Of a DNA stretch of 64,000 bases, positions 10,574 to 53,114 are shown piece by piece. The stretch lies in the IMG/VR virus record IMGVR_UViG_3300032288_002265, positions 1 through 64,000 of that record; one strand, given 5' to 3'. Position 1 is the first letter of the stretch; each line of letters begins with the position of its first letter. The notes beneath the pieces are model-generated. The model did not search any database, was not told the DNA's origin, and worked only from the letters and a program-made list of their open reading frames with translations. Position numbers and translations under genes: made by a program. Origin of the DNA: a virus.

Positions 10574-13500
10574 ATGCCTAACCAGCTTGTTGAGTGGTGG
10601 CGCACACAGCGCCCCGAGGATGCCTCTTTGTCGGACGACAGTCTGACGATGAAGATCGCGTCGATGGCCCCGGACTACAAAGCCCAGGGCAAGGACATCT
10701 TCGCCGACTACCCAGACTTCACGGCCGACTACAACTCGCTGCTCGAGCGGGCTGGCAAGGAGTACCGCCGTGGCACCGCGACGCTCGGCAACGAGGTTAG
10801 CCGTGGCTTGCAGCGTGGCATCAGCGGTCTGAAGTCGACGGCCTACGGTGCTGCGGCTCTGGCGGCTGACGCCATTCCTGGCACGTTCGCTGATCCTGCT
10901 CGAGATGCCCTGCTGCGGAAGTACAAGACTGCACAGGAGGATGCGTCTCAGGAGGATGTCACCCCGGCAGTTGGGTCGTACAAGGAGGTTGGAGATCTGC
11001 GAGATGCTGGTCAGTACGTCGCCGGCCTCGTTGGTGAAGGTCTACCGTCCGTCGCCGAGTCCATGGTTACTGGTGCCATTGGTGCTGCGGCTGGCAGCGA
11101 GGTGCCCGTGGCCGGCAACATTGCTGGCGGTATCGCCGGCATCGTCGGAAAGCAGGCGGCGAAGCGGCTCATCGCCAAGAAGATCGCTGGCTTCACGGCC
11201 CAGGAGATCGAGGAGGCCGCGCTCAAGGGCGTCGGATCCGAGGCGCTGAAGCAGCTGGTGCGTGCCGAGACCAAGGCGATCACGTCCACTGCAGGCGCTG
11301 CGCTCGCCAGCACGCTCAACAGCTACGGCTTGAGCGCGGGTGAGATCTACGGCGAGCTCGCGACCAACCCGAACGTCAAGCCTGAGGACGCCCTGGGCAT
11401 CGCTGTTGCCGCTGCGATCCCGGCTGCGATCGCCGACACGGCTCTGCCCGGGTACGTGATCAACAAGTCGGGCGTGCTGCGCCGGCTCGCTGGTCAGATC
11501 GAGAACTTTGGTGAGACCGAGAAGCGTGGGTTCTTTGGGTACATCACCAGGCTTGCTGCCGAGGTTCCCAAGGTCTCGACCATGGAGGCTGGCACCGAGG
11601 CGTTCCAGGAGCTCGTCAACATCGCCGCGACCAAGTACGGCGAGACGGGCAAGTTCGACCTATCACTGACTGAGGCCGAGAAGGAACGGATCATCAACTC
11701 CGGTATCGGTGGCGCTGTCGCTGCCACCACCACCGCCCCGCTCGCTGCCGCCCGCTTCGACAAGACGGAGCAGGAGGCTACCGCCCAGGCACCGGCTGCT
11801 GCTGCTCCTGCCCAGGCGCAACCTGGCTCTCCAGCCGCGCCCGCCGCACAGGCAGCGCCTGCTGATCCCACTGCTCCTGCTGCTCAACAGAACCAGCCAG
11901 ACACCGCCACGGACGTGCTCGAGGCTGGGTACGACACGAACATCGACGGCATCAAGGATCTCGCCCGCAGAAAGCTGGCTGGTGATGACGTGTCTGCCGA
12001 GGAGGCTGCACTGAAGCCTGATGCCGCTCGCCGCTACCAGCGCGAGGTGATCGCTGCGTCCGAGGCGAAGGCTGCTGCTGAAGCTACTGCTCCTACCGAG
12101 ACGGCTGCGACTGCCACGGAAGAGAAGAAGACTGAACCTGAATCGAAGAGCGCCCTCACTGCTGAAGCGCAAGATCTCCTGAGGAATGTGGATGCCGGCG
12201 GCGTTCCTGTATTCATCACCGCAAACCTCAAGCGGATTGCGTCTGAGAACGGCGTCACGATCGAGGGATCTGACACTTCGAACAGCGTGATTGAGAAGCT
12301 GCGGAAGAAGGGTGCGGAGACCGATCCTGCTCCGGATTCGACATCTACTGATGCTGGTGGCGAGGAGAAGAAGTCGACGATCAACCTCACCCCGATCGAT
12401 TACACCGACAACCCGTCCTGGGATGCGGCCACCAGGACGTTGAACCGCACGAGCGGATCGGCCCGCGTCATAGATTACTCCGACCGGAAGATCGTCCTGG
12501 TCAACGTGAACGGGCTCAACATTCCGTTTTACCTATCTACCGGACAGGCTAAAAAAAAGGAGGTCGCTGCCGGCAAGTGGTACCCGATCTTTGGCATCTC
12601 CTCGGATGGGTGGCTCAACAAGGGTTCCCAGAAGGAAATCAACAACTTCTACGGGAGCGAGGAGCTTAAGAGGATCGCCCAGCAGTTGGACGCTGAGCTT
12701 GGTAAGGATGTCAAAGCGGACATTAAAGTGTCCAACAGCGCGGTGTTTTCCTCGGTCAACGGGTTCCTAAAGGAGCTCGGGCTACAGCCTGTCGAGAACG
12801 AGCTCAGCACCACGGTCGATGATCTCAAGAAGAACATCTCAGCAGTCATCGCTGAGATTGAGCGTCGCAAGGCTTCTGCCTCCGAGCCCACTCCTGCTCC
12901 CACTCCCGCACCGGCTGCTGATGCTGCACCGACCAACGTCGACGCCGATCCTGTCGACCAGGCTGAAGAGGGTGAAGACTTGCAGCTTTCTACGGAGGAC
13001 TCTGCGGCGAAGCAGTCCATGTCGAAGGACGCCAAGGCTGCTCAGAGCCAGGTCGAACTGCTCAAGAAGAAGATCGCCGCGATCGAAAAGCTGACGGAGC
13101 AGCGATCGAAGGAGATCGAGCCGGCCCAGTCGTTGATGGATCGGTACATCGCCGCCGATGCGATCACCAACAAAGAGGAGCGGGCGGACGCTCTCAAGGC
13201 GCTCGAGGGTGAGCTCAAGAAGTACGGCGGCGTCGAAGGCCTGCAGAGCCGGCTCCAGACCCTGAATGTCCTGGAGACCGACAAGAACGGGAAGCCGAAG
13301 CTGCTGCTGAAGCCGGTCAGTGACGACCCGCGCAAGACAGTGTCGACGCGGCTGAACTACTACGCCAAGAAGCTGAACGAAGCGCAGTCGAAGTTGATGA
13401 TGATCAACGACGACATCGACACGCTGATGATGTCTGCCGCTCCGTCCGAGCGCAGCCGGATGCCGGCGTACTACGAGTCCGGTGACGAGTCGGAGCAGTC

Positions 13501-16500
13501 TGGTGAGCTTATGCGCCTGTACGGCGAGTCGCTCAAGGCCAAGGGACTTGCCAGGCAGACCGCGCTGAACGAGCTCGGTTACACCCTGACCGCCGACGCT
13601 CGTGGCAAGGATTCCAACCAGCGCCATAGCCGACGCCTCACCGCCTGGGTGAAGCGCAGCGAGGCTGGCAATCCGACCGAGATCATCGTCACCACCTCGC
13701 ACCGCGAGCCGATCCCTAAGAAGTCGAAGAGCGAGTTCAATCCGGTCGACCGGTACGTCTTCGCTGTCTCCAACACCGAGTACCTGCAGGGCGGTAACAA
13801 GAAGAAGGTGACCGAGAAGAAGGCTGATGTCCGCACGATCACCCAGATGATCGACGACGGCTTCATGCCGTACTCCTCGATCCTGCTGGGCTCTGCGCGT
13901 CACCGTAGCGTCGAGCGGTTTGTCTTTCAGGAGGGAGGTAAAACCGCGCTCGCGCAGTACAACGAGATGTTCGGCGAGGCCAAGCAGGCTGCTGCCGCCG
14001 GGAAGCCAATCGAGACTGGGTTCGGTAAGAACGAGGACGAGATCATCAACGAGGCCGCGAAGACCGCTGCCGAGGAGTTGTCCGATGTTGAGCTCGAGTA
14101 CGCCAACAGGTTCTTCCAGTACATCCGCGACCAGTTCCTAGAGCAGTCGGCTGAGCTCCTGGACAAGGGTCGCTTCTCTGAGGCGCTCGAGCAGAGCTTG
14201 CTCGGCAAGATGATCGGCGTGTACGACGAGATGGTTTCCAAGAACGCCTCGGAGACCGACATCTCGAATACGTTTTCCAGGTCGTTCAAGAGCGAGATCG
14301 AGGGATTCCTCAAGCAGGAGAAGAAGTTCGCTTCCGCCCGTGACATGGCGGTCATTGCTGAGACCCTGCCGTCCTACTTCGCTGGATCAGCCTTGAGAGC
14401 GACGATGTCCGCTCGTGCCGATGCACTGAAGCAGACGTATCAGGACATCAAGCTCAACGCCCTCAAGAAGGCGATCGGGGAGAAGAACAATGAGAACAAT
14501 CAAAGTACCTCAGGAACTAAGGCAGTCAGTCCCACCGGAGCAGCTGGTAAAGCTGATCGAAATGGTGGCGGTGACGGCAAAGGCAATCGGGTCGTCTCGA
14601 AAAAAGATGCTCAAGCAAAGGTCGCCAAAGCAGGCAAGGCCGCAGCAGGTAGCGTCGCGTCCAAGAAGCGTACCGCCTCCCGAGCAGATGTAGCCAAGGC
14701 CACCGCTGCGAAAGCGGACAAGCCCAAGCGCACTGACGCTGCCTCCAAGGCCAAGAAGCAGGCAGCGAAGAGCGAGGTCGTCAAGCGGGAGACCAAGTAC
14801 GTCTTCAATCCGAAGACCGGACGGGCCGAGCAGGTCTCGAACAAGATCATCGAGGCCGGCACGCCTGCGCCTGTCGCGAAGCCTAAGAAGGCTGGCACCA
14901 AGAAGGAGGCCGCTCCGAAGAAGGGCACGAAGCCTGCCGCTCCAGAGCAGCCCAAGCCCGAGGCCAAGCCCGAGCCGACGATCGAGCAGCGGAAGGAGGC
15001 CGCGCTTGAGGCTGTCGCCAAGCTGCTCGCCGCGAAGCTGATCAAGCGCAAGGAGTACAACGGCCTGATCGACGCGATCAACGCCGGCACGATTGCTCAG
15101 ATCCAGGAGATCCTGGACAAGTCCCAGGCTGCGGAGAGCTCGGCCAAGGACAGTAATTCGGTGGTCGCGCTGAAGGAGACCGTGCTCAACCTCGAGGAGC
15201 AGGGCCTGATCGACAAGGTTGTCAGGAAGGCGATGCTCAAGAAGATCGACCAGAACGCCTCCAATCAGGAGGCCTTGGCGAAGTTCGAGCAGGAGCTCAA
15301 GGACTACAGCGACCGCGAGGCGAAGAAGACCCGCAAGCGCCTGTCCCAGGCTGACCCTGAGGCCATCGAGTCGGTCGACCTGCAGAGCGGGCGTATCACC
15401 CCGGTCGAGCTCGTGCCCAACTCGATCGAGAACATCGAGCACAACATCCGCCGCTTCAGTCAGCCGGCCAGGAGCCTGCTCACCCAGAGCATGGACGCCG
15501 AGTCGGTCTCGCAGAAGTACCCCAACCTGATCACCGCGCTGCGTCGCATCGCCATCGAGGCTGCGACGGACTCCAGCCCGATGAGTGTGATCCGCGCCAC
15601 GATCGCCAAAGCGATGATGGACCGCGTGGCTAATACCGGTGCCAAGCTGATCTTCGTCGATCAGTCGATCACCCCTGGCGTGCTTGGAAAGTTCGACCTC
15701 CGGAACAACGAGATCGTCATCTACACCGGGGCGCACTCGACCGACCTGGACCTGCAGGCCACGATCCTGGAGGAGACGCTGCACGCCTTCACCTCGAAGA
15801 CGCGCCTGGCTTTCGACACCAACCCTGAGTCGCTGAGCCTCGCCCTGCGCGATGCTATCACCGGACTGAACAGCCTGATCGAGGCCGCGAAGAAGGCGGG
15901 GCTGAAGTGGCAGGAGAGCGACAGTGCGGATGCCGCCGTGGCGTTCGACGAGTTCGTGGCTGCTGCCGTTCGTGACGACCAGTTCAAGGCCCAGTTGGCC
16001 AAGATCCCGTTCAACAAGGACTTCGGCATCAAGAAGGCGACGACTCTGCTCGAGGCGATCAAGCTGCAGTTCTCGAAGATCCTCGAGGCGATCGTCAGCG
16101 CGTTCCCGATCTTCGGCAGTGGAGGCAAGACCGGCGGGATGACCGCCCTCGATGCCAGCGCAGCGTTCATCAACGCGATGGTGACCAACCACCAGAAGGT
16201 GGCCAACGAGCAGGGTGGCAAGGAGCAGCGAAACCGCTACGTCGAGGGCACGCTCGGGACCGGTGCCGACATCACGGTCGATGGCAGTCAGTTCTCGGCC
16301 GACGCGACCGCCGAGGCCAAGCGGCTTATGGCGCTGCAGAACCTGATCCAGGATGCCGCCACCCGCATGGTCGATATGTGGAACCGGAAGGGGAACAACC
16401 GTTCCTCGCAGGGCACCCAGCTTCTGAGCAATGACCAGGCGATCAAGAACATGATCCTGGACATGATCAGCAACTCGATGCCGCTGCCGTCCGACGCCAA

Positions 16501-19500
16501 GCAGGCGATCAACAAGGCGCTCTCAGACCAGGGTGCCAGCACGATCTCCGACGCCATCACCATGGGCGACCTGGAGCAGAAGAGCGATGCGCCCAAGGTG
16601 GCTCGCGACGGACTCAATGCGCTGAACACCGTGCTCTTCAACCTGAAGAGAATGCGGGCCGAGGCAGAGGAACTGTTCGGCAAGAAGAACATCCTCCAGA
16701 AGATCGCCGACTCGAGCTTCGAGATCAGCGAGCTCACCAAGAAGTTCGAGGACATGAACTTCATCGGGAAGGAGTTCGTGAAGGAGCTTCGCCGCTCGAT
16801 CGATGAGAGCGAGGACGTTGGCGCTGGCTCGATCGCCAAGGCGATGGGCATGACGACCGGACGTAAAGCCTCGTTGCAGAACGCCGCGACCTGGATCCAG
16901 GCGAACCTCAACGCCTACACCGACGCCCTCGTGGCCTTGTCCGAGTTGGGCGTGGACTTCAAGAACACCCCGCCTGCTGACATCCTCAAGACCGTCAACG
17001 CCGCCGCAGCGACCGACGCGAGGCTGGTGCCCATGCAGGACATTGGTCGGCTCGCCATGGCCGGTCAGTTCGCCCGCCGTCGCCCGATGGTGATGGACTT
17101 TCTGGCCACCCGCAGCAGCGGTGAGGCCGGTGCCCTGCGCTCGATCATTGCGATGGCCACCAGCAGCCGTGCCGACGCCATCGAAATGGCCAAGCGCGAC
17201 CTGTCGAAGCTGAAGCGGATCGGTGGAATCGCTGCCCGCATCATCGATCAGTTGTCGGAGATGAAGGCCGAGCACCGTAAGATGCTTGACCAGGCCAAGC
17301 TGCACGCTGAGCGCGAGCAGTTCGCCGTGGATGCCGAGGCCGCGCTCACCGAGCGGATCAAGTACCTGGATCGAATGCTGCAGGTTGAGGACACCTCCGG
17401 TAACAAGCTGTGGCAACCGCACCACAACGCCACCTACTTCGTACCGACCTCTCCGAACCAGTCGGAGGAGTCGCTCTTCGAGGACAACCCGACCTCCCAG
17501 TCGTTCCGGAAACTCCGGTTCGGCCAGGACTTCGACGGTGCCAAGGTCCGCAGCGAGCTCGCCCTGATGAAGGGATGGCTCGACGCCAACCAGAACCTGC
17601 GCGGCACCTCGAAGTACAACCTGATGAAGCGTCAGATCGACGGACTCACCAAGATGTATGCCGAGGAGGTCGACGCCAACGTGCGCCGTGGACCGTTCGG
17701 GTTCCTGGTGCGAGCCCTGGGATCCAGCGCCGACCGCCTTGAGCAGCTTGGCCTGCTGTCTGCCAAGGAGGCCGCGACAATGATCCGCCGGTACGTAGCG
17801 TCGTTTGAGCAGTCGCTGAAGTCGGTCGATGCGAAGTCGTTCCACGAATACGATGCGCTGATGCGGAAGGGAACTGAGCTCAGCGGCTTGCACCCGCTCG
17901 AGTTCAAGCGCCAGTACTACAACCGTGCGCTCGGCTACCTCGAGACCCGTCAGGATCTCCTGAATCCCACTCTCACGCAGCAGGCTCAGGAGGATCTGCT
18001 GGTGCGCGAGGCGATCCGTTTCATGGACCAGTCGACTCCGATGAGCGACGAGTTGAAGACCACCGTGGGGAACCTGCTCCGCACGGCCGGTCGAAACGGC
18101 GAGATCATCATCGGCCGCAACCGCGTGAACTTCGGTCTGAAGGTGGCCGACGTGATGAAGGATGGTCGAGTCTACCTCCGTGAGCCCATCGGACATCCGC
18201 TGTCCACCGCCGCCCGCAGCTTGGACGAGAGTGTTCGAGTGTTGGCCAACAAGATGGAGGCTGCGTGGAAAGAGACATTCACTGCCAACGGCGAGCCTGA
18301 TACTAAGCTCAAGCCGGCTACCGTCTCGGGCCTGTACACCACGGACGTGAACGCGCTGCGCTCTATCCTGGCCGGCCGGTTCACCGAGGAGGTGATGTCG
18401 AAGTTCGTGAAGCCGCTGGTCAGCAAGACCGGCAAGACTAACTTCAAGGGGCCTGAAAGCCTTGGTGTGGTCGACATGGCCAAGCGGGAGAACCTCATCG
18501 AGGCCTACCGGCTGGCTGGTGGCGACATCATCAAGTTCGCCGAGGAGCTTCACCGACTCGAGGGCGGCGACCCTGCCACGCTCGCTGACTTCGTTGGCGA
18601 GACGATTGGCACGCTCCAGAAGTACGCCTCGACCCTGTTCCAGGTGGCGGACACTGCCGGAAAGAACGCGGACGAGGATGCCGACCCTGGCCTGAACTTC
18701 CTGAACGCTCGCCAGGGCGAAGACTTCCCGTGGGAGTGGCTCGACTACAAGGAGTACGGCTACAAGAACCGGACTCGATACCTCCGTGTGATGGCTCAGC
18801 AGTTTGCATTCGGCGACAACCAGGATGGATTCAATCGCCTGGTCGAGGAGTCCCGCCGGCAGCTGATGAAGTTCAAGGACGAGTACGAGGATGCTCACAA
18901 GAAGCTCAACGCTGGCGACCGTGCCGGCTACGAGAAGGCCCTGAACGAGGGCGGCAACCGGATCGCCCGCCAGAACGCCCAGGCAAACGTCCTGGAGTTG
19001 AACGCCGCCGAGAAGCACCACTCCGCGCTGATGAGCGAGCTCAACGGCAACAAGCAGTCAGCCGGTGTGTTCTCCGAGATCCTGGGAGTCATCTCAGGCA
19101 TGACCGTGCAGGGTCTGGCGACGGCCGCGACCGACTCGGTCACGCTGTTCGAGGCTCCGTTGCGGAAGTTCGGCTTCTCCAAAGAGGCCATCCAATTCAT
19201 CGCCGGAACCTGGAAGGCGCTGGGCACCGAGATTGCCGGCACACTGGCTCAGGCGTTCGGGATGCAGTTCCACCAGGACACCGCCACATCCCGTGAGACC
19301 GACATCCTGAACCGCAACGGCCTGGCTGACAGCGACAGTATCACCTCCAGCCGTGGCTTTGCGGCCTTGCACGAGCGGTACATCCAGGAGCTTGCCGAGG
19401 AACTGACCTTCTCGGCGATCACCGATCGGTACAAGAACGAGCGTATCACGATGGCCAAGGAGCTCGCTTCGGGCGCGGTCAAGCGCGTGGCGAAGGCTGG

Positions 19501-20977
19501 CAAGGTGTTCCTCGAGTCCGGTATCGGCCAGGCCAAGGACGACAGCCAGGCGTTCGCCTCGTTGAAGCTGCTCAATCCGTTCACCCAGGCGTCGATCTGG
19601 ATGCACCGCGCTGCCGCCCGCCAGTGGCTGCGGACGATCAACAACGCCGTCCTGAAGGCCGAGGTCTACTTCAAGGCCCACCCTCAGGCTGAGTCGGATC
19701 CGAACTTCCGCTTCACCGCCAAGGAGCTTGGCTACTCGGGCAAGACCCTGACCGGCATGAAGCTGGACAATCGGGCCTGGGAGTTCCTGAGCGAGAAGCT
19801 GGCTCAGTCTGGCATCAGCCTCGAGGACGCAGCCCGCAAGAAGCTGCGCGGCCAGGATCCGCTGGACTTCAACCAGATCCAGTCGGCCTTGTCCCTGGCG
19901 CAGACCGAGATCCTGCTCAACACCAGCCCTGTCACCCGACCGGCTTGGTCCCAGGACACGATGCTCGGCCGTCTGTCCACCCCGCTGGTGGGCTGGGCGC
20001 TATACAAGAGTGCGGACGTGGCCAAGACCGCTGCCGGTCCCAAGTCCAAGGGCGACCTCAAGGCGTTCGCCAGCTTCATGGAGGCGATGCTGCTTGGTGT
20101 GCTGCCGATCTCGCTCGCCTACGCCATGCTGCGTGACGAGTACGAGGAGGAGGTTCTGAAGAAGAAGCAGAACGTCATGCCCCTGCGGGCGGACGCCACG
20201 CTGCCGGCTGCGATCCTCGATGCCACGTCCCGCCTGGGTATGCTTGGCATCGTCGGTGAGATCCCGAACTCGATCGCCAACCAGTCGACGCAGCGCGAGG
20301 TCTCGGTCGACAGCCGCGTGTTTGCCGTGAGCTCCGCGCTTTCGTTGATGCGTGCGATTTCGACCGCGTACAACCAGGGCACAGTGACCTACCAGTCGGT
20401 GGTTCGGCCGATGATGCAGGCGGTGGGTGGCTCAGGTTATCTGCAGAACTTCGATGCGATCAACGGCCTGGCTGGGCTGGACAATGTCGAGTCCCGGCTG
20501 GCCAAGCGTGTGAACGTCGGCAACCAACTGCGAGTCGCCGGCCGGATGAACGACATGGAGATCCGTGGAGGCAAGGGCATGGCGACCACCGCCAATCCGG
20601 TGAAGCCGCACGTGGTAAACATGGCCCTGGCTGCGTACGCCAACGACTCGATGGCGTTCCGTCAGGCGTACCAGAAGGCGCTGCAGGCGGCGATCAAGAC
20701 CTTCCCGGACTCGGATCCGTACGAGAAGGTGGCATCGGCGTTCGAGTCTCAGCACCCGCTGAAGTCGATCTTTGCCACCCGCCCAACCACGGCCGACTAC
20801 CAGAAGATGCTCCGGTCACTCGGGGACGAGGCTTCGGAGGTCAGCGCGGCGATCCGCAACCTGAATGCCTACGGTGCCCAGGTGCTCACCAAGCGCGGCG
20901 GCTCAGGCATCAAGCCGTTCTACGGAACCGAGACCAGCAGCAGGTCCACGGACTACCGCAGTATGCTCACGAGGTAA
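10574..20977 (+). CDS. Giant (3467 aa) internal virion / polyvalent ejection protein
   Basis: Single 10.4-kb ORF with strong GC3 bias. Gly/Ala hydrophobic N-terminal region, zincin-like EETLH segment and a helical C-terminus with hydrophobic segments; third ejection-gene position. Confidence 0.8.
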   Translation: MPNQLVEWWRTQRPEDASLSDDSLTMKIASMAPDYKAQGKDIFADYPDFTADYNSLLERAGKEYRRGTATLGNEVSRGLQRGISGLKSTAYGAAALAADAIPGTFADPARDALLRKYKTAQEDASQEDVTPAVGSYKEVGDLRDAGQYVAGLVGEGLPSVAESMVTGAIGAAAGSEVPVAGNIAGGIAGIVGKQAAKRLIAKKIAGFTAQEIEEAALKGVGSEALKQLVRAETKAITSTAGAALASTLNSYGLSAGEIYGELATNPNVKPEDALGIAVAAAIPAAIADTALPGYVINKSGVLRRLAGQIENFGETEKRGFFGYITRLAAEVPKVSTMEAGTEAFQELVNIAATKYGETGKFDLSLTEAEKERIINSGIGGAVAATTTAPLAAARFDKTEQEATAQAPAAAAPAQAQPGSPAAPAAQAAPADPTAPAAQQNQPDTATDVLEAGYDTNIDGIKDLARRKLAGDDVSAEEAALKPDAARRYQREVIAASEAKAAAEATAPTETAATATEEKKTEPESKSALTAEAQDLLRNVDAGGVPVFITANLKRIASENGVTIEGSDTSNSVIEKLRKKGAETDPAPDSTSTDAGGEEKKSTINLTPIDYTDNPSWDAATRTLNRTSGSARVIDYSDRKIVLVNVNGLNIPFYLSTGQAKKKEVAAGKWYPIFGISSDGWLNKGSQKEINNFYGSEELKRIAQQLDAELGKDVKADIKVSNSAVFSSVNGFLKELGLQPVENELSTTVDDLKKNISAVIAEIERRKASASEPTPAPTPAPAADAAPTNVDADPVDQAEEGEDLQLSTEDSAAKQSMSKDAKAAQSQVELLKKKIAAIEKLTEQRSKEIEPAQSLMDRYIAADAITNKEERADALKALEGELKKYGGVEGLQSRLQTLNVLETDKNGKPKLLLKPVSDDPRKTVSTRLNYYAKKLNEAQSKLMMINDDIDTLMMSAAPSERSRMPAYYESGDESEQSGELMRLYGESLKAKGLARQTALNELGYTLTADARGKDSNQRHSRRLTAWVKRSEAGNPTEIIVTTSHREPIPKKSKSEFNPVDRYVFAVSNTEYLQGGNKKKVTEKKADVRTITQMIDDGFMPYSSILLGSARHRSVERFVFQEGGKTALAQYNEMFGEAKQAAAAGKPIETGFGKNEDEIINEAAKTAAEELSDVELEYANRFFQYIRDQFLEQSAELLDKGRFSEALEQSLLGKMIGVYDEMVSKNASETDISNTFSRSFKSEIEGFLKQEKKFASARDMAVIAETLPSYFAGSALRATMSARADALKQTYQDIKLNALKKAIGEKNNENNQSTSGTKAVSPTGAAGKADRNGGGDGKGNRVVSKKDAQAKVAKAGKAAAGSVASKKRTASRADVAKATAAKADKPKRTDAASKAKKQAAKSEVVKRETKYVFNPKTGRAEQVSNKIIEAGTPAPVAKPKKAGTKKEAAPKKGTKPAAPEQPKPEAKPEPTIEQRKEAALEAVAKLLAAKLIKRKEYNGLIDAINAGTIAQIQEILDKSQAAESSAKDSNSVVALKETVLNLEEQGLIDKVVRKAMLKKIDQNASNQEALAKFEQELKDYSDREAKKTRKRLSQADPEAIESVDLQSGRITPVELVPNSIENIEHNIRRFSQPARSLLTQSMDAESVSQKYPNLITALRRIAIEAATDSSPMSVIRATIAKAMMDRVANTGAKLIFVDQSITPGVLGKFDLRNNEIVIYTGAHSTDLDLQATILEETLHAFTSKTRLAFDTNPESLSLALRDAITGLNSLIEAAKKAGLKWQESDSADAAVAFDEFVAAAVRDDQFKAQLAKIPFNKDFGIKKATTLLEAIKLQFSKILEAIVSAFPIFGSGGKTGGMTALDASAAFINAMVTNHQKVANEQGGKEQRNRYVEGTLGTGADITVDGSQFSADATAEAKRLMALQNLIQDAATRMVDMWNRKGNNRSSQGTQLLSNDQAIKNMILDMISNSMPLPSDAKQAINKALSDQGASTISDAITMGDLEQKSDAPKVARDGLNALNTVLFNLKRMRAEAEELFGKKNILQKIADSSFEISELTKKFEDMNFIGKEFVKELRRSIDESEDVGAGSIAKAMGMTTGRKASLQNAATWIQANLNAYTDALVALSELGVDFKNTPPADILKTVNAAAATDARLVPMQDIGRLAMAGQFARRRPMVMDFLATRSSGEAGALRSIIAMATSSRADAIEMAKRDLSKLKRIGGIAARIIDQLSEMKAEHRKMLDQAKLHAEREQFAVDAEAALTERIKYLDRMLQVEDTSGNKLWQPHHNATYFVPTSPNQSEESLFEDNPTSQSFRKLRFGQDFDGAKVRSELALMKGWLDANQNLRGTSKYNLMKRQIDGLTKMYAEEVDANVRRGPFGFLVRALGSSADRLEQLGLLSAKEAATMIRRYVASFEQSLKSVDAKSFHEYDALMRKGTELSGLHPLEFKRQYYNRALGYLETRQDLLNPTLTQQAQEDLLVREAIRFMDQSTPMSDELKTTVGNLLRTAGRNGEIIIGRNRVNFGLKVADVMKDGRVYLREPIGHPLSTAARSLDESVRVLANKMEAAWKETFTANGEPDTKLKPATVSGLYTTDVNALRSILAGRFTEEVMSKFVKPLVSKTGKTNFKGPESLGVVDMAKRENLIEAYRLAGGDIIKFAEELHRLEGGDPATLADFVGETIGTLQKYASTLFQVADTAGKNADEDADPGLNFLNARQGEDFPWEWLDYKEYGYKNRTRYLRVMAQQFAFGDNQDGFNRLVEESRRQLMKFKDEYEDAHKKLNAGDRAGYEKALNEGGNRIARQNAQANVLELNAAEKHHSALMSELNGNKQSAGVFSEILGVISGMTVQGLATAATDSVTLFEAPLRKFGFSKEAIQFIAGTWKALGTEIAGTLAQAFGMQFHQDTATSRETDILNRNGLADSDSITSSRGFAALHERYIQELAEELTFSAITDRYKNERITMAKELASGAVKRVAKAGKVFLESGIGQAKDDSQAFASLKLLNPFTQASIWMHRAAARQWLRTINNAVLKAEVYFKAHPQAESDPNFRFTAKELGYSGKTLTGMKLDNRAWEFLSEKLAQSGISLEDAARKKLRGQDPLDFNQIQSALSLAQTEILLNTSPVTRPAWSQDTMLGRLSTPLVGWALYKSADVAKTAAGPKSKGDLKAFASFMEAMLLGVLPISLAYAMLRDEYEEEVLKKKQNVMPLRADATLPAAILDATSRLGMLGIVGEIPNSIANQSTQREVSVDSRVFAVSSALSLMRAISTAYNQGTVTYQSVVRPMMQAVGGSGYLQNFDAINGLAGLDNVESRLAKRVNVGNQLRVAGRMNDMEIRGGKGMATTANPVKPHVVNMALAAYANDSMAFRQAYQKALQAAIKTFPDSDPYEKVASAFESQHPLKSIFATRPTTADYQKMLRSLGDEASEVSAAIRNLNAYGAQVLTKRGGSGIKPFYGTETSSRSTDYRSMLTR

Positions 20978-47037: not shown

Positions 47038-48105
47038 TCAGTTCTGTGTGTTTTTGAGGTGGTTGAAGTAGGCCTCAAGCCCGAGGTGAACCAACGTGCC
47101 CAGACGGAGAGCCTCGGACGCCTCATCGTCTTGGATTTTGCGGACCTGCTCTTCGTAGTGCAGGAAATGGTGGCGGGCGCATCGACGAAGCGACGACGAC
47201 CGCGAATTGGTCAGAAGCTGGCGTTCGCCGTCTGACTGGATCTTGAGCTCGTTGTGAGCGGACTTGGTCTTGGCAAACCGGATGCCATCGACCGAGGCGC
47301 GGCCCGAGCAGAGATCGAAGAACTCGCACGTGCGGTTGTAGGCGTTGCACGCATTCGGATTGCGCGGCCACAACTGCTGCTTGCGGAAGTAGAGGATCTG
47401 CTGGCTCAACTGCCAGGCGTCGCTCATGTACTCCAAGATGTCGGAGTCGAGGCGGGCGATCTCCTTCTGGGCATAGAAGTTGAACGGGTTCTCGCGCAGG
47501 ACTCCCAGCACGCGGGTCTCGAACTCCTCCGGGGTCTCCGGTCGAGTCTGGACGACGTAGCCGGCCTCGGTGTCACCGGTCTCGCGCCACTTCTTGCCGT
47601 CCTTCGTCCGCACACGGTTGCCGTTCGCATCGAGTACGATCTTGGAGCCGGCCTCGTCACGCAGCGGGATCTGCGCCTGGCGTTGACCAGGCTTGCCCAT
47701 CACGTCGTAGATGACGCCACCCACGTCCTGGCCGGTCTGCAACGCGCCCAGGAAGTACTTCGAGACCTGCGTGTCCATGCGAAGCCGGTCCCAGTAGTTG
47801 GACTCCGGAGCCACGTCATCGCTGGTGGTCTTGTGCTCAAGGACGATCAGCTTGCCGTCGGAGCGACGACGAAGCAGGGCGTCCATCTTGCCGGCCTCAG
47901 AGAACGAGCGGCTCGTGCCTTCGGTCTCCGGGTTCAGCAGCGGGAACGCGAACTCGCGCTCTACGTCGACGACCTGGTAGGCGCTCCAGTTGTTGCACCA
48001 CACCGCGTCGTAGACGGTGACCATCGCTCGGGCCTTGGCGACCGAGAACAGATCGTCACTCTTGATTGCGGTCAGTGCGACCGCCAGTTCCTCTCTCATG
48101 CTCAT
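47038..48105 (-). CDS. PD-(D/E)XK (Cas4/AddB-like) exonuclease, circularly permuted
   Basis: VEREF, GKMD, EHKT, QVSKY and C-x6-C-x5-C; the usual N-terminal motif sits at the C-terminus. Confidence 0.85.
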   Translation of the reverse strand: MSMREELAVALTAIKSDDLFSVAKARAMVTVYDAVWCNNWSAYQVVDVEREFAFPLLNPETEGTSRSFSEAGKMDALLRRRSDGKLIVLEHKTTSDDVAPESNYWDRLRMDTQVSKYFLGALQTGQDVGGVIYDVMGKPGQRQAQIPLRDEAGSKIVLDANGNRVRTKDGKKWRETGDTEAGYVVQTRPETPEEFETRVLGVLRENPFNFYAQKEIARLDSDILEYMSDAWQLSQQILYFRKQQLWPRNPNACNAYNRTCEFFDLCSGRASVDGIRFAKTKSAHNELKIQSDGERQLLTNSRSSSLRRCARHHFLHYEEQVRKIQDDEASEALRLGTLVHLGLEAYFNHLKNTQN

Positions 48106-48455
48106 GGTAGTATTTCGATTACCGTTTCTTCTTGGTCTTTTTTGCTGACCTTTTCTTGTCGAATTTCGAGCTCGATAAGGTCTGGAGAATCATCCCGCAG
48201 TACGCCCCCATATCGAAGGAGGTCGATGACGTACTTGGGGCAGACGTTGTCGGGGTCGAGGAGCCGGCAGCGCCTGCTCGTAACCACGACTCGAATGCGC
48301 GTTTTGCCTCCTTCTTTTCTCGGTGCCGCTGCCAGTGGTTCATTCCAAACAGCCGGTTGAGGCTGGGCAGTCGGTACTTGAGTGTGATCCTGAGTCCCCC
48401 TGGTGGAATGCCGTTGAAGGAACTCGGCGAGTTGCTCTTCATTCCAGCGGGGCAT
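48102..48455 (-). CDS. RusA-like resolvase, catalytic half (frame B)
   Basis: RLLDPDN...K...IDLL...GVLRDDS; its stop overlaps the nuclease ATG. Confidence 0.75.
   Translation of the reverse strand: MPRWNEEQLAEFLQRHSTRGTQDHTQVPTAQPQPAVWNEPLAAAPRKEGGKTRIRVVVTSRRCRLLDPDNVCPKYVIDLLRYGGVLRDDSPDLIELEIRQEKVSKKDQEETVIEILP
48119..48442 (-). CDS. Nested ORF carrying the RusA-like N-terminal half (frame A)
   Basis: ITLKYRLPSLNRLFGMNHWQRHREKKEAK; its ATG overlaps the upstream stop (ATGA). Confidence 0.55.
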   Translation of the reverse strand: MKSNSPSSFNGIPPGGLRITLKYRLPSLNRLFGMNHWQRHREKKEAKRAFESWLRAGAAGSSTPTTSAPSTSSTSFDMGAYCGMILQTLSSSKFDKKRSAKKTKKKR

Positions 48456-48642
48456 TGGTGAGTTTGGATAGGACGCTCGGCCAGTGGAATCTGAGGTCTC
48501 GGTTGTTGAGCCTGACAACAGGTATCTTACCCAAGGCTGCGTACTTCCTGACACGTCTCGCGCTGTATCCGATCTTCTCAGAAAGCTCGGATACCGTAAT
48601 CAACCTTTCGGAATCCAGTGGATGTTCAGAGGTTTTTTTCAT
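48439..48642 (-). CDS. Excisionase-like winged-HTH protein
   Basis: LITVSELSEKIGYSARRVRKYAALGKIPVVRL...LRF. Confidence 0.75.
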   Translation of the reverse strand: MKKTSEHPLDSERLITVSELSEKIGYSARRVRKYAALGKIPVVRLNNRDLRFHWPSVLSKLTNAPLE

Positions 48643-48652
48643 GCAGCAAATA

Positions 48653-48696
48653 TGCACTCAATGTGCTCTCAAGCTGCACTCAAGGTGCGTTCAGGG
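48653..48696. repeat. 4 x 11-bp tandem repeat (TGCACTCAAGG-like), putative operator
   Basis: TGCACTCAATG / TGCTCTCAAGC / TGCACTCAAGG / TGCGTTCAGGG directly upstream of the Xis-like gene. Confidence 0.75.
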
Positions 48697-48721: not shown

Positions 48722-50269
48722 TTACGCCGCGTGGATTGCTGAAACCGGTGCCGATCCAAAATCGGTCGATTTTCCGCCCGAAAGCTCGTGTCGAAGCATT
48801 GGATACGTCATCGCATCAAAAACGTGGATGAGGCCACGCGCAGTCTTCTTCGGCTTGAGAGGCTCGTCCTTGCGCCCCTCGAGCATTAGGAGCGTCTCCT
48901 GAGCCCACGGGCACTGGGCTGACACCAAAATCGTGTCCTGGTGCAGCTTGCTCTGCATCATGCGAACGCGGGCCTCGATCGATCCCGCGCCCTTCGGACA
49001 GCCGATCATCTTCATCTGAGGCAGATGGTGGAGCAGGCCGGCGCGGTTGAACTCCTTCTCGAAGTCCCAGGCGTCGTAGCTGCCACCGCCGCCAGGACGC
49101 CACTGGTTCACCGCGCTGTCGTCGGCGATGTGCTCCCAGGCCATCTTCCGACCGACGGCCTTGTTCCAGGCCAGGATCCGATCGACGATCTCGTTGGCCA
49201 TGTTCTTGTAGAGGATCTTCTCGTTCAGGTGGCAGATCTCGTCGAACACGATCCAGATCGGCTCATTCTCGAGTGGAACCAACTGCATGAACACGGCGGT
49301 CGAGTACACCTGGCCAAGGTCGTAGCCGATCGCACACGGAGCCCAGGGCACCGGAGTTAGTCCGGTTCCGAGCCTGAGGTCTCCGACGATGTGTCGCTCT
49401 GCGGAGTAGTGCTGCTTGAAAAGGGCTTCTCCTGTGGGTCTTTCGATCCACTTGCCTTCGATGAGGCGAGCCCTTTCGATCGGGTCTCCCTTGACAGCCC
49501 TTTCGAGTGTTTCCAGGTAGCTGGCCATCTCGGGCCGATGCGCGTTTTCTCGGAATGGGACATGGTAGACTGAGAAACTCTTGTCTCGTTCTCCGGTTTC
49601 GTGGTTGAAGGGCTCCTCAAAGAACACCTGGTACACCCAGTTGCTCGGACCCTTGGGATTGCAGGTCGCCACGTACTGCTGCGGGCCTTGGATGTGGCGG
49701 CGTCGGTTCAGCTGCGCGGCGATCAGGGTGAAGTAGTCACGCCCCTCACAGTCGGTCAACTCGTCGGGCAGGATGAACGACGGGTGAATACCCTTGATGC
49801 GTCCAGCGATCGCCTCGGCGTACGGAATGGCGATCTGGAGGATCGTCGACCATCCACCGTGCCGGTTACCCACCTTAAGGATTCGGTCCTTTGTGTTCGG
49901 GTCCAGCTTCGAGGGGATCCACTCCATTCCGATACCTTCCTCCCAGGCTGGCAGGATCAGTGTCTCCAGGTCATGGATCACACCGAACTTACCGGTACGG
50001 ATGGATGGGGTGACGATCAGACCGAGGGCATCCCAGTTCTCGTAGACGTGCCGCACCATCTTGTGCTCGGCACCGATGGACTTGCCTGAGCCCTTCTCGC
50101 CGTAGGCCAGAATGAACGGCGCGGCGTCGTTGAAGATCTTCAACTGTGTCGGGTTGAGATCAGGCATCCACACCTTGGTGGAGGCGGGGCGGGGCTTGTG
50201 GTCTGGATTAAAGTCCAGCTCCAGCGAGGCAAGGGCCTCCAGTTCTTCGTCGCTTGTCCTAGACGGCAT
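48722..50269 (-). CDS. terL: Terminase large subunit
   Basis: YGEKGSGKS (Walker A), PDELTD (Walker B), ATCNP, and nuclease motifs GYDLG and HVFDAMTY. Confidence 0.9.
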   Translation of the reverse strand: MPSRTSDEELEALASLELDFNPDHKPRPASTKVWMPDLNPTQLKIFNDAAPFILAYGEKGSGKSIGAEHKMVRHVYENWDALGLIVTPSIRTGKFGVIHDLETLILPAWEEGIGMEWIPSKLDPNTKDRILKVGNRHGGWSTILQIAIPYAEAIAGRIKGIHPSFILPDELTDCEGRDYFTLIAAQLNRRRHIQGPQQYVATCNPKGPSNWVYQVFFEEPFNHETGERDKSFSVYHVPFRENAHRPEMASYLETLERAVKGDPIERARLIEGKWIERPTGEALFKQHYSAERHIVGDLRLGTGLTPVPWAPCAIGYDLGQVYSTAVFMQLVPLENEPIWIVFDEICHLNEKILYKNMANEIVDRILAWNKAVGRKMAWEHIADDSAVNQWRPGGGGSYDAWDFEKEFNRAGLLHHLPQMKMIGCPKGAGSIEARVRMMQSKLHQDTILVSAQCPWAQETLLMLEGRKDEPLKPKKTARGLIHVFDAMTYPMLRHELSGGKSTDFGSAPVSAIHAA

Positions 50270-50285
50270 CGTTGACTCTCCTGTT

Positions 50286-50312
50286 CAGTTACCTTATTCC
50301 AAGGCCAACAGA
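50286..50312. promoter_or_regulatory. Back-to-back late-promoter-like motifs
   Basis: AAGGTAACTG on - towards terL and AAGGCCAACAGA on + towards the head genes. Confidence 0.5.
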
Positions 50313-50335
50313 TCAAGCAAGGAGCCAGGAAAAAT

Positions 50336-50614
50336 ATGAGCCCCAATAAAATGGTCATTTCCCTTGAGGGGAACGACGAACTCAAGGAGTACCTCTCGAA
50401 GAAATCGCCTGGTGATACCTGCGAGTTCGAGGTCACCGCGTCGATGGACGAGATGACTCCCGATCAAGCCACCTTCTCCGTGAAGAGCGCCGAAGCCTAC
50501 TCCGACGAGGAAGAGGCTCCCATGACTGAGGAGGCTTACACGGGGGAAGGCGAAGCGGCCGTACCAGAAAAGGGACCGGCCGCAGTGATGATCGCCTTCG
50601 GAAAAAAGAAGTAG
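50336..50614 (+). CDS. Acidic 92-aa protein ending in a slippery site
   Basis: AGGA SD; ends GGA AAA AAG AAG TAG. Confidence 0.7.
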   Translation: MSPNKMVISLEGNDELKEYLSKKSPGDTCEFEVTASMDEMTPDQATFSVKSAEAYSDEEEAPMTEEAYTGEGEAAVPEKGPAAVMIAFGKKK

Positions 50615-50883
50615 GCCACCCCCAGGAAACCGACAACCCACTTACCTACCGTGCGGTAAAGCGATATCAACAAATTGGGGTATGGGACGGATGGGGCATC
50701 GAGCGTTTCAAGAAGGCGTGCCGCTTGCTCGGCGAGACGCCAGAGGAGCTCGCCGTCTCATGCGCTATTACCATCCGTCAGCTTCGTCTCTGGATGAAGC
50801 AGGGATTGTTCCCAGGTCACGCTGCACTGCTGTTTCACCTGCGTGAGCAGGATTGGTTTCGAGCCCAAGGACTCAAGAAATAA
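50602..50883 (+). CDS. Start-less -1 frame extension with an HTH-like domain
   Basis: Open to TAA at 50881-50883; FKKACRLLGETPEELAVSCAITIRQLRLWMKQG; no upstream ATG or GTG in frame. Confidence 0.55.
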   Translation, partial: KKEVGHPQETDNPLTYRAVKRYQQIGVWDGWGIERFKKACRLLGETPEELAVSCAITIRQLRLWMKQGLFPGHAALLFHLREQDWFRAQGLKK

Positions 50884-53114
50884 TGCCACTCAACTACAAG
50901 CTGCTCACCAAGTTCGGGACTCACGAAGATCGCCTCAAGGAGATCTTCACTGCGGCTCCGGAGCGGCTTCCTGCCGATGCTCCCGAGGAGTTGAAGAAGA
51001 ACGTCCTCGCCGACTACCGCGTGCGGCAGAAGATCGAGGAGACCATCGAGAACCGGATCGACGAAGCCATCCTGCAGACGCTGCGGACCAGCCACCTGTA
51101 CGCCGCCGTTGACCTGGCCTGGGACTCATCGACGATCACACGTCGCACGATCCCGCTCGTTCTCTACGCCCAGAAGCGTATCGACATGGAGCGCTGTGTG
51201 ACGCAGTTGAAGGATCTCAGTTGTGCTGACCAGTTCGTCAAATACTCCGGAGGCAAGCCCAAGTCGATCGATCTACCCAAGTTCACCGAGGTCAGCATCA
51301 ACCTGCTGCGGTCGATCATCAGCCGCCGCGTGGCCGCACAGAGCGCCCGCTTCACCAACCTCTACCCGTTCTTCAAGTTTGAGCCCCGTGGCACCTCCGA
51401 GGCCGACAAGCTGCGGGCAGACATTCTCTCGCAGCGGATCGACATCATGGCCGACCAGTACGGCTACCGCGCTTCCCAGATCCAGTGGATCCGCGATATG
51501 CTTCTCTATCCTCACGTAGTCGCATTCCCTGCGGCGAAATGGGATCGCGAGATCGAGTGGTACGACGAGAACGATGAAAAGGCGGACGAGTTCCAGGACA
51601 AAGAGGTCAAGCCTAAGAGCCGCGTGAAGCGGGAGGGTGTTCCCCTGATCACCCCTCACCCGAGCCGAGTGTTCTACGATGTGGCTCACCCGATCCAGTC
51701 GATCAACAGCGACAGTGGGTGCGAATGGTTCGGTTTTTGGGACATCTTCCGGTACTCGCAGATCCTGGACAATCCGAGCTACTTCAATCGTCAGGACATC
51801 ACGTACTCGCCAGACGCCACGTCCTGGTTCCAGTCGTACTCGAGCTACTTCAGCCAGTACTACACGAAGATCTCGCCCCCGGTGAATGGTGAGGACATCG
51901 CCTCGCACAACGACCGTAAGGCGCAGATGGACCGATACACGTCGCAGATGCGCGATTCTTCGGTCTACGTCACGCACCTGTACTGGAAGATCAAGCCGAA
52001 CGAGTGGCGCATGGGAGACTACCCGCACGCCGTCTGGCTCCACCTGGTGGTAGCGAACTCGAAGAACGTCATCGCCGCCGAGATCATGCCCGACTGCCCT
52101 GGATTCGTGTTCTCGTTCAACACGAGCCAGCAGCGCCTGGTGAACCTCTCGATGGCGCACGAGCTCCTGCCGTTCCAGGACCAGCTGTCGAACCTCTTCA
52201 GCCAGCTGCTGGAGTGTGCGAAGCGGGATCTGTTTGGCATCGCGATGTTGAACCTTGATGCGTTCCCTGTGGAGAACGAGACCGCCAAGCAGGCGCTCGA
52301 TGCATTCCGCGAGGCGATGAAGAACGAGAACTTCTTCGCGCAGACCTCCGTCCTGGAGGTGTCGGTCACGAAGATGCGCGAGCTTGGTGTCGACCTGGAT
52401 AACGTCTTCAAGATCATCCGCCAGCCGCCAAATACTAATCTCAACACGATTATCAACTCGATCAGCCAGACCATTATGATGGCCGAGCGGGTGATGGCGC
52501 TGTCACCCCAGGAGCAAGGTCAGCAGAGCCCACGTGAGACCTCTGCGACGGAGGTGCAGATCATCGCCGGCACGACGGAGAACATCTACCAGTTCATCTC
52601 CGACGCCGTCGACGAGGGTCGTTCTGCGGTGAAGAGGTATCTCTACAACGCTCTGATCAGCCTGGGCACCGAGGATATCTACCTGCCGGTGGTGAACCGT
52701 TATCGCCGAGACGTGGCCGAGAAGGCTGGCTTCACCATCACGGACGACGAGGGTGCCGAGATGATGCCTGGTCCGAACCCAATCCAGTTCTCGGTGATCG
52801 GCACCAAGAAGAACCTGGTCGCGGAATACATCTTCAACAGCCGCGACGGTGCCGAGCGTGCGTCGAACATCCAGGGCGCTCAGACCCTGACTCAGATGCT
52901 CGGTGTGCTGATGCAGCCTGCTGTGCTCTCAATGCTGACAAAGGAGAAGCTCGCTGACATCATCAACACGATCATCCGGCAGTCTGGCGCTGGAGTAGAC
53001 GTGACGGTTGAGCCTCCTCCTGGTGAGGGTGCCCAACCTGTCATGGGTGCTCAGCAACAGATGCCGTCAGCGATTCCGAGTGAGACACTGCAATCGCAGC
53101 TTCCGACCTCGTGA
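50883..53114 (+). CDS. Portal protein
   Basis: Size and position; INLLRSII, PHPSRVFYD, LLPFQDQLSNL and RETSATEVQI motifs of P22/T7-type portals. Confidence 0.8.
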   Translation: MPLNYKLLTKFGTHEDRLKEIFTAAPERLPADAPEELKKNVLADYRVRQKIEETIENRIDEAILQTLRTSHLYAAVDLAWDSSTITRRTIPLVLYAQKRIDMERCVTQLKDLSCADQFVKYSGGKPKSIDLPKFTEVSINLLRSIISRRVAAQSARFTNLYPFFKFEPRGTSEADKLRADILSQRIDIMADQYGYRASQIQWIRDMLLYPHVVAFPAAKWDREIEWYDENDEKADEFQDKEVKPKSRVKREGVPLITPHPSRVFYDVAHPIQSINSDSGCEWFGFWDIFRYSQILDNPSYFNRQDITYSPDATSWFQSYSSYFSQYYTKISPPVNGEDIASHNDRKAQMDRYTSQMRDSSVYVTHLYWKIKPNEWRMGDYPHAVWLHLVVANSKNVIAAEIMPDCPGFVFSFNTSQQRLVNLSMAHELLPFQDQLSNLFSQLLECAKRDLFGIAMLNLDAFPVENETAKQALDAFREAMKNENFFAQTSVLEVSVTKMRELGVDLDNVFKIIRQPPNTNLNTIINSISQTIMMAERVMALSPQEQGQQSPRETSATEVQIIAGTTENIYQFISDAVDEGRSAVKRYLYNALISLGTEDIYLPVVNRYRRDVAEKAGFTITDDEGAEMMPGPNPIQFSVIGTKKNLVAEYIFNSRDGAERASNIQGAQTLTQMLGVLMQPAVLSMLTKEKLADIINTIIRQSGAGVDVTVEPPPGEGAQPVMGAQQQMPSAIPSETLQSQLPTS

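Follow-up and report, generated by a model that had tools for sequence, protein, structure and literature searches.

A candidate programmed −1 frameshift that would append a helix-turn-helix-like domain to a small protein encoded beside a putative phage portal gene

The viral record IMGVR_UViG_3300032288_002265 (73,327 bases; CheckV completeness, 69%) contains, within positions 1–64,000 (the 64,000-nucleotide stretch analysed here, hereafter the window), a short open reading frame (ORF), termed A, which ends just past an A_AAA_AAG heptamer, and an adjoining region, termed B, which lies in the −1 frame relative to A and extends to a putative portal gene. This arrangement is probably explained by a −1 programmed ribosomal frameshift, a reading in which we place considerable confidence and from which two products are predicted, namely A itself (92 aa) and an A–B fusion (182 aa). 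ORF A occupies positions 50336–50614 on the plus strand (ATG at 50336; TAG, identified by ORF reading, at 50612–50614), and the slippery heptamer is located at 50602–50608 on the same strand, in phase with A and one codon upstream of the 0-frame stop. B extends over 50608–50883 (+; 91 codons in the −1 frame, followed by TAA at 50881–50883) and comprises a variable linker and a predicted five-helix Xre/Cro-like domain. The putative portal gene (50883–53114, +; 743 aa) begins with an ATG that overlaps the stop of B (TAATG). We regard the site as a well-supported candidate for programmed −1 frameshifting in a new gene context, the mechanism being ordinary and the gene family unannotated.

In the reading frame that begins with ATG 50336, codons 50600–50614 are GGA AAA AAG AAG TAG, as a model-made reading of the letters alone (the sequence-only reading) had described, and the X_XXY_YYZ phase of the heptamer is thereby satisfied. 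The −1 frame is open from position 50530, because a TGA occupies 50527–50529, to the TAA, the last A of which is the first base of the next gene's ATG. With the post-slip codon at 50608, it specifies 91 residues, close to the 90 or so codons counted in the sequence-only reading, and the junction peptide proposed there corresponds to the −1 reading of the DNA. The string AAAAAAG occurs seven times on the two strands of the window (2.3 expected; 0 of 100 shuffles reached 7), and only one other in-phase A_AAA_AAG is present in 27 long ORFs of the window (14,472 codons), in which lysine is specified by 731 AAG and 89 AAA codons. The G+C content near the heptamer is ~58%. DNA nearly identical to window positions 50200–51200 was found in 20 public runs from 13 studies with freshwater, lake, riverine, and estuary labels, and contigs from four of these runs, including X4 (estuary label), X11 (lake water), and X15, were compared with the window. 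In the DNA contigs from the independent assemblies X4 and X11, the heptamer is unchanged and the site is spanned without indels.

Relatives were collected with the putative portal serving as a neutral anchor, which yielded 10 viral and 77 metagenome loci with portal identities of 36%–100%. An iterated profile search of these 87 loci (L numbers below) identified A in 80, B in 82, and both in 77, providing 69 non-identical A–B junctions. The gene for the terminase large subunit (TerL) adjoins A in 72 of the 87 loci, mostly on the same strand and directly upstream, and the conserved order of the module is TerL, A, B, and putative portal. B lies in the −1 frame relative to A in 40 of the 69 junctions and in the +1 frame in the other 29. 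An in-phase X_XXA_AAZ heptamer opening into B is present in 22 of the 40 −1 junctions, as compared with an expectation of 1.4, which was calculated by applying the rate in portal ORFs (54 heptamers, with no A_AAA_AAG, in 42,556 codons) to 1,115 overlap-window codons. Among the 29 +1 junctions, only one has such a heptamer in the last 40 codons of A. A separate fetch made later (26 viral and 3 genome loci) added 19 new junctions, nine of which contain an in-phase heptamer, including those of the new lineages L119 and L126. A single ORF in which A and B are fused was found neither among the 69 junctions nor among 40 database representatives, and one match of 205 aa has a different N-terminus. 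The conservation that the sequence-only reading had proposed to look for is present, in that A and B are conserved and in-phase heptamers recur in several clades.

The 22 heptamers comprise 18 copies of A_AAA_AAG, one A_AAA_AAA (L004), one G_GGA_AAG (L054), and two copies of G_GGA_AAA (L007 and L079), and both their position and their type vary between clades. A_AAA_AAG is retained in L001, L046, and L002/3, in the last of these despite a change of the preceding GGA to GCA. In L004, the −1 frame opens just 7 nt before the stop of A, and those 7 nt are the heptamer itself; in L005, the heptamer lies 18 codons upstream of the stop. A marine clade, the portals of which are ~51% identical to that of the window, has an invariant GCT AAA AAA AAG G ~20 codons before the stop of A, and the −1 frame usually opens at this point because the CT AAA creates a TAA in that frame. 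A stop follows the heptamer immediately in L054 (G_GGA_AAG, then TAG) and L058 (A_AAA_AAG, then TGA), and L094 has GGA AAA AAG at its junction.

Codon usage at the end of A differs between the two groups of loci. In loci with a heptamer, AAA accounts for 53% of the lysine codons in the last 30 codons of A, as compared with 18% in the portal genes of the same loci (p 6e-13), whereas the corresponding values in the other loci are 27 and 28%, respectively (p 0.89). The enrichment is specific to the heptamer loci and supports selection for slipperiness. Loci with an independent start for B encode the conserved Lys-Lys of A as AAG AAG.

Selection, alignment, population variation, and a confident structural model (described below) all identify B as a genuine coding region, and it is under purifying selection in the −1 frame. 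The ratio of nonsynonymous to synonymous substitution rates (dN/dS) in this frame is 0.132 between the window and L002 (dS 0.63) and 0.138 between the window and L004, whereas the same aligned DNA gives 1.5–2.2 in the other two frames. The alignment of B contains eight lineages over the entire −1 frame and has 13 invariant columns, and each of the three population differences found inside B in the X4 and X11 contigs is silent when read in the B frame. Insertions and deletions separating the heptamer from the core of B are frame-preserving, the spacing being 9 codons in the window and 10 in both L002 and L004; this interval lies past the stop of A, and therefore only translation of B explains the constraint on its frame. 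Given these data, it is hardly credible that B is an unexpressed, recently orphaned remnant or that the frame break is a homopolymer assembly error. Homopolymers are indeed error-prone, and a GTG present in L002/3 has been lost in the window, but the same frames and run length occur in L001 and L046 and in the X4 and X11 contigs, with no indels listed. L004 and L005 also have no start, and the loss of the start is therefore old. The dN/dS values of 0.13–0.14 across lineages and the silent differences within the population likewise run counter to a remnant.

The sequence further indicates that B has no usable start of its own in the window and its nearest relatives. No ATG, GTG, or TTG is present in the −1 frame at 50530–50724, and in the window, L001, and L046 there is also no CTG, ATT, ATC, or ATA from the point where the frame opens to the conserved Y20 of B. 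The first canonical starts are a TTG at 50725–50727 (+), which is the sole canonical start within the first 60 codons of B, and an ATG at 50794. Both lie inside the HTH (helix-turn-helix)-like part, which agrees with the earlier statement that no ATG or GTG precedes that part. The TTG is not conserved: one of the three silent differences, T>C at 50725, converts it to CTG, the codon found in L001, X4, X11, and X15. Helix 1 of the B model (residues 11–23, with the invariant P11 and Y20) is encoded upstream of every candidate start, and the TTG comes after both helices 1 and 2.

These features bear directly on the possibility that B is a separate protein, produced by non-canonical initiation or by reinitiation after the stop of A, with the heptamer arising incidentally from the Lys-rich tail of A. 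Several features of the family speak for this idea. B normally stands alone and has a start of its own, the 29 +1 junctions mostly have a start overlapping the end of A, and in 14 −1 junctions a start lies on or close to the stop of A, often in a GTGA overlap, with L002/3 retaining a GTG there. In a start-less sub-clade (L037, L042, L085, L099, and L116), ATT, ATC, or CTG codons were noted by eye 6–10 nt after Shine–Dalgarno (SD)-like runs, and non-canonical starts may therefore be used in the family. In the window and L001/L046, however, there is no canonical or near-cognate start up to Y20, and the codon at the position of the GTG is GTA. The first ATT in B (residue 23) is not preceded by an SD-like run, and a start there would remove the conserved helix 1. 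The shift towards AAA codons is also confined to the heptamer loci, the own-start loci writing the same two lysines as AAG AAG. For the window, we consider separate initiation of B quite unlikely.

Two of the start-less arrangements deserve description in their own right. In L099 (1620–1900), a single TAG (AAA AAA TAG GAG) separates A from B, which share one frame, and B lacks a canonical start; stop-codon readthrough, or initiation at an ATT located 6 nt past AGGAG, would be possible there. In L037 (920–1130), L042, and L085, B is at +1 and no ATG, GTG, or TTG precedes its conserved N-terminus. The C-terminal residue of A is Tyr in L037, L042, and many marine lineages, and A of L085 ends in YPKE. 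The window itself offers none of the alternative expression routes seen in these relatives or in L002/3 and L058.

The remaining explanation for an A–B fusion places the slip at the RNA level: the polymerase would stutter on the A run, and mRNA with one extra A (or two fewer) would have B in frame. The usual substrates of bacterial transcriptional slippage are runs of ~9 A or T, and runs of this order do occur in relatives (A9 in L004, L032, and L035; A8 in the marine clade). The run of the window consists of six A's, which is below that length, and L054 (TCG GGA AAG), L079, L007, and L126 have G_GGA_AAR sites with just three or four A's. The phase of the heptamer is preserved, although it is irrelevant to polymerase slippage. 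The lineages thus share a phased heptamer and not the length of an A run, which favours ribosomal slippage over polymerase stuttering; the latter is accordingly given very little credence as the explanation for the window, and both processes could act on the A8–A9 runs.

Several results weigh against a frameshift or limit the strength of the comparative argument. The association between a missing start and the heptamer is strong in raw counts (12/1 versus 10/17; Fisher p 0.0017), and stronger with a stricter definition of a start (20/4 versus 2/14; p 1.3e-5), but many rows in those counts are close kin. Phylogenetically independent comparison leaves only five to six pairs on well-supported branches, of which 1.3–1.5 point in the same direction (median p 0.5–1), a non-significant result that is due to too few contrasts. 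When mapped onto a tree built from 66 portal N-termini, the heptamer state requires six changes, of which only three are forced by well-supported branches, and the deep half of the portal tree contains own-start arrangements only. The B family is usually stand-alone, since 38 of 40 representatives drawn from 1.84 billion proteins are 52–162 aa in length, and each of the 19 representatives for which a sequence was retrieved starts with its own Met. L002/3 and L058 have a GTG overlapping the stop of A in addition to the heptamer. Start-less copies of B without a −1 heptamer are found in L008/9, in L037, L042, and L085 (B at +1), and in L099 (in frame behind TAG), and therefore another route of B expression exists in the family. 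The Lys-rich tail of A is conserved as protein, which somewhat favours A-rich codons in itself. Finally, shuffled sequences fold at least as well as the region 3′ of the heptamer (z +1.28 for 92 nt and +0.61 for 52 nt), and the consensus RNA folds of the two clades are weak (−3.4 and −2.5 kcal/mol) and show little covariation, so that no conserved stimulatory element was detected by these analyses. In one of the alignments used for the consensus folds, the L046 row was off-register and the three remaining rows were valid.

The sequence-only reading had also suggested a 3′ stem in which GTAGG (50611) pairs with CCTAC (50645). Although these letters are present, the minimum-energy folds leave them unused and the pairing is lost in L002 and L004; this stem is not supported. 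An upstream SD-like stimulator was not detected by reading of the local sequence. Stimulatory elements are common but not obligatory at −1 frameshift sites. Since none was found, the slippage rate may be modest. The central claim of that reading, a programmed −1 frameshift with products of 92 aa and ~182 aa, gains comparative support from the selected B frame, the lack of a usable start, and the recurrent in-phase heptamers.

According to the proposed mechanism, most ribosomes would read A through to the TAG and release the 92-aa acidic protein. A fraction would slip back by one base on A_AAA_AAG, the lysine tRNAs re-pairing on AAA AAA, and would then run on in the −1 frame through the short linker and the Xre/Cro-like helix-turn-helix, ending at the TAA that overlaps the portal start. 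A 0-frame stop close by can raise slippage, and the nearby TAG may aid it here. We infer that the slippage takes place on the ribosome and at a useful rate. The TAATG overlap is the sole basis for a further suggestion, that translation of B may be coupled to that of the next gene.

The heptamer A_AAA_AAG is the efficient bacterial −1 site of dnaX and of insertion sequence (IS) elements, and programmed frameshifts in tailed phages are known mostly from tail chaperone and capsid genes. In IS3 and IS1 transposases, OrfA and OrfB are fused by a −1 frameshift at A_AAA_AAG, the short protein being produced as well as the fusion. The window locus resembles these elements in that a short upstream ORF ends just past an in-phase A_AAA_AAG and a start-less −1 ORF would be reached as a fusion. 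It differs in that the HTH-like domain is encoded downstream and not upstream, in its location within a phage packaging/head module, in that no stimulatory structure was found, and in that relatives of the window phage alternate between a frameshift and an independent start of B. In the Escherichia coli dnaX gene (tau/gamma), the shifted frame soon meets a stop and the protein is shortened, with an SD-like element upstream and a stem-loop downstream both enhancing the shift. The same A_AAA_AAG read by lysine tRNAs and two products with a common N-terminus are shared with dnaX, but here the shift would add a whole domain and neither stimulator was detected.

A parallel in phages is the G/GT frameshift in genes for the tail assembly chaperone (Xu et al. 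2004, cited in PMC10885494). It also involves a two-ORF module, conserved in numerous tailed phages, in which the long form consists of the N-terminus of the short form and a C-terminal domain, with the site and mode varying by lineage. G/GT is located between the tail tube and tape measure genes, whereas A–B lies between TerL and the putative portal; the A and B families are, in addition, unrelated to G/GT and unannotated, and many A–B relatives use separate initiation. The PRFect paper (PMC10885494), in the part available, counts among the cases known or suspected in phages tail chaperones, capsids, Cro, lysins, methyltransferases, polymerases, IS3 transposases, and RusA/RuvC. No terminase–portal case is among those, although the paper's functional categories of predicted frameshifts might include one. 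Full-text literature searches also returned no frameshift between terminase and portal genes.

For widespread freshwater and marine phages, these results suggest a rule for gene calling, namely that a 'non-coding gap' before a portal-like gene may be a domain reached by recoding. They also provide a natural experiment, as the same two genes are separate and overlapping in some lineages and would form a frameshift fusion in others, which implies that the A and B proteins work together. The comparison also makes it possible to ask why only some of the phages fix the stoichiometry.

The structural evidence for B was obtained from a model based on a 43-row alignment, which has five helices, a predicted local distance difference test score (pLDDT) of 94.1, and a predicted template modelling score (pTM) of 0.81. 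In VIA-align comparisons, B residues ~26–91 matched Aca10 (7xi5; Z 7.4, root-mean-square deviation of 1.9 over 56 residues), Aca1 (7fa3; Z 6.9), HigA2 (5j9i; Z 6.7), and C-proteins (Z ~6). The top 10 rows are nearly all of the Xre type, with Z values of 5.9–7.4, which are under the level of 8 that the tool treats as clear and in a range where a common arrangement suffices. Foldseek searches of B against PDB and BFVD yielded nothing at E 0.001 and weak rows of the same protein kind, and the leads from BFVD and Atlas are of the HTH_3 type. At the sequence level, none of 43 members matched any Pfam family at E 0.01, no PHROG matched more than one member of the B family, and a PDB sequence search with the B profile gave chance-level rows only. 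Weak MerR matches (E 0.05–0.07) were recorded for B, but a MerR identity was rejected, as it has a weak sequence match only and the fold resembles Xre/Cro instead. Compared with these five-helix HTH domains, B has an extra conserved N-terminal helix and no profile match. Thus, the term 'HTH-like' applied in the sequence-only reading holds as a reasonable reading of the modelled fold, but not as a family assignment. A has a conserved domain of ~55 aa at its N-terminus, followed by a disordered acidic linker and by the tail PAAVMIAFGKKK. In its model, residues 1–55 (a helix and a beta hairpin) have pLDDT values of ~88–95 and the remainder is disordered. A has no Pfam or PHROG family, and its best score in a fold search (Z 3.1) corresponds to no match.

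With regard to function, the module order suggests, less strongly, that A and A–B act together in the packaging/head module (TerL, A, B, and putative portal). The HTH part would then be a DNA-binding arm, possibly small-terminase-like, and the frameshift would determine the proportion of subunits with and without the HTH. It is possible that A plus A–B plays a small-terminase-like role, although the balance is somewhat against it. In the 72 loci mentioned above, A is the gene adjoining TerL in the packaging module, the position looked for in a terminase small subunit (TerS) gene, but neither A nor B matches a TerS family in Pfam or PHROGs. In the marine locus L105, no recognisable small terminase is encoded directly upstream of TerL, where an integrase, an HTH protein, and a metalloprotease-like protein are found instead. 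A more specific and doubtful proposal is that A/A–B serves as the small terminase, or packaging-initiation factor, that is missing from this large uncultivated group of phages, in which the N-terminal domain of A would oligomerise and a fraction set by recoding would carry the HTH arm. In the window, this recoding would be a −1 frameshift, whereas sister lineages might use readthrough or unusual starts. If this were true, it would constitute a second phage-wide recoding module with short and long forms, like that of the tail chaperone G/GT but in packaging genes. A rival small-terminase candidate for the window clade is a 72-aa MerR/HTH_17-like ORF (48439–48657, minus strand) directly downstream of TerL, which has a weak TerS match (phrog_57, E 7e-4) and weak excisionase matches and which was found only in L001–L004 among the loci. 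The integrase, HTH, and small metalloprotease-like genes of L105 (1573–3997) can be read as including an ImmR/ImmA-like pair, which suggests a temperate lifestyle for that phage.

TerL of the window (48722–50269, minus strand) is divergent from A, and an inverted orientation of TerL relative to A, B, and the putative portal was observed only in the clade of the window (48722–50335, as compared with L026–L098). Its identity is based on a match to phrog_2 (E 6.5e-21), and Terminase_3 and Terminase_6N are barely past their cut-offs. The putative portal is so labelled on account of its position, its size, and very weak matches (phrog_6547, E 0.31; PDB portal chains, E 0.47–0.57). Searches (tblastn) with the putative portal and with TerL against 50,697 phage records gave no match, i.e. 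no cultured relatives were found, and, with regard to the host, a scan of genome contigs identified three contigs of metagenome-assembled genomes only. At positions 50000–51200, no promoter-like sites were detected, and one terminator-like site was found versus 1.0 expected; no tRNA genes were identified in the window. Two short, low-depth contigs from RNA libraries cover 50318–50544 and 50630–50883, neither of them spanning the heptamer; they give no indication of transcription and were not used.

Two further sites in the window are of note. The second in-phase A_AAA_AAG is located at 12553–12559, at codon 660 of a giant ORF (10574–20977; 3,467 aa), in the string GCT AAA AAA AAG G, which is identical to that of the marine-clade A–B site. 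The −1 frame closes there after 38 codons. The giant ORF has no PHROG match at E 0.001, and its neighbours match tail-fibre and tail-protein families. At 48102–48554 on the minus strand, a RusA-like resolvase seems to be split over two frames, the N-terminal half being encoded by an ORF at 48442–48119 and the C-terminal half, which has weak matches to RusA PHROGs (E ~0.002), by a −1-frame ORF ending at 48102. This two-frame layout is kept in L001, L002, and L004, with a conserved CGA GAA AAG (A_AAG) just before the switch, and may represent a possible second frameshift in the same phage.

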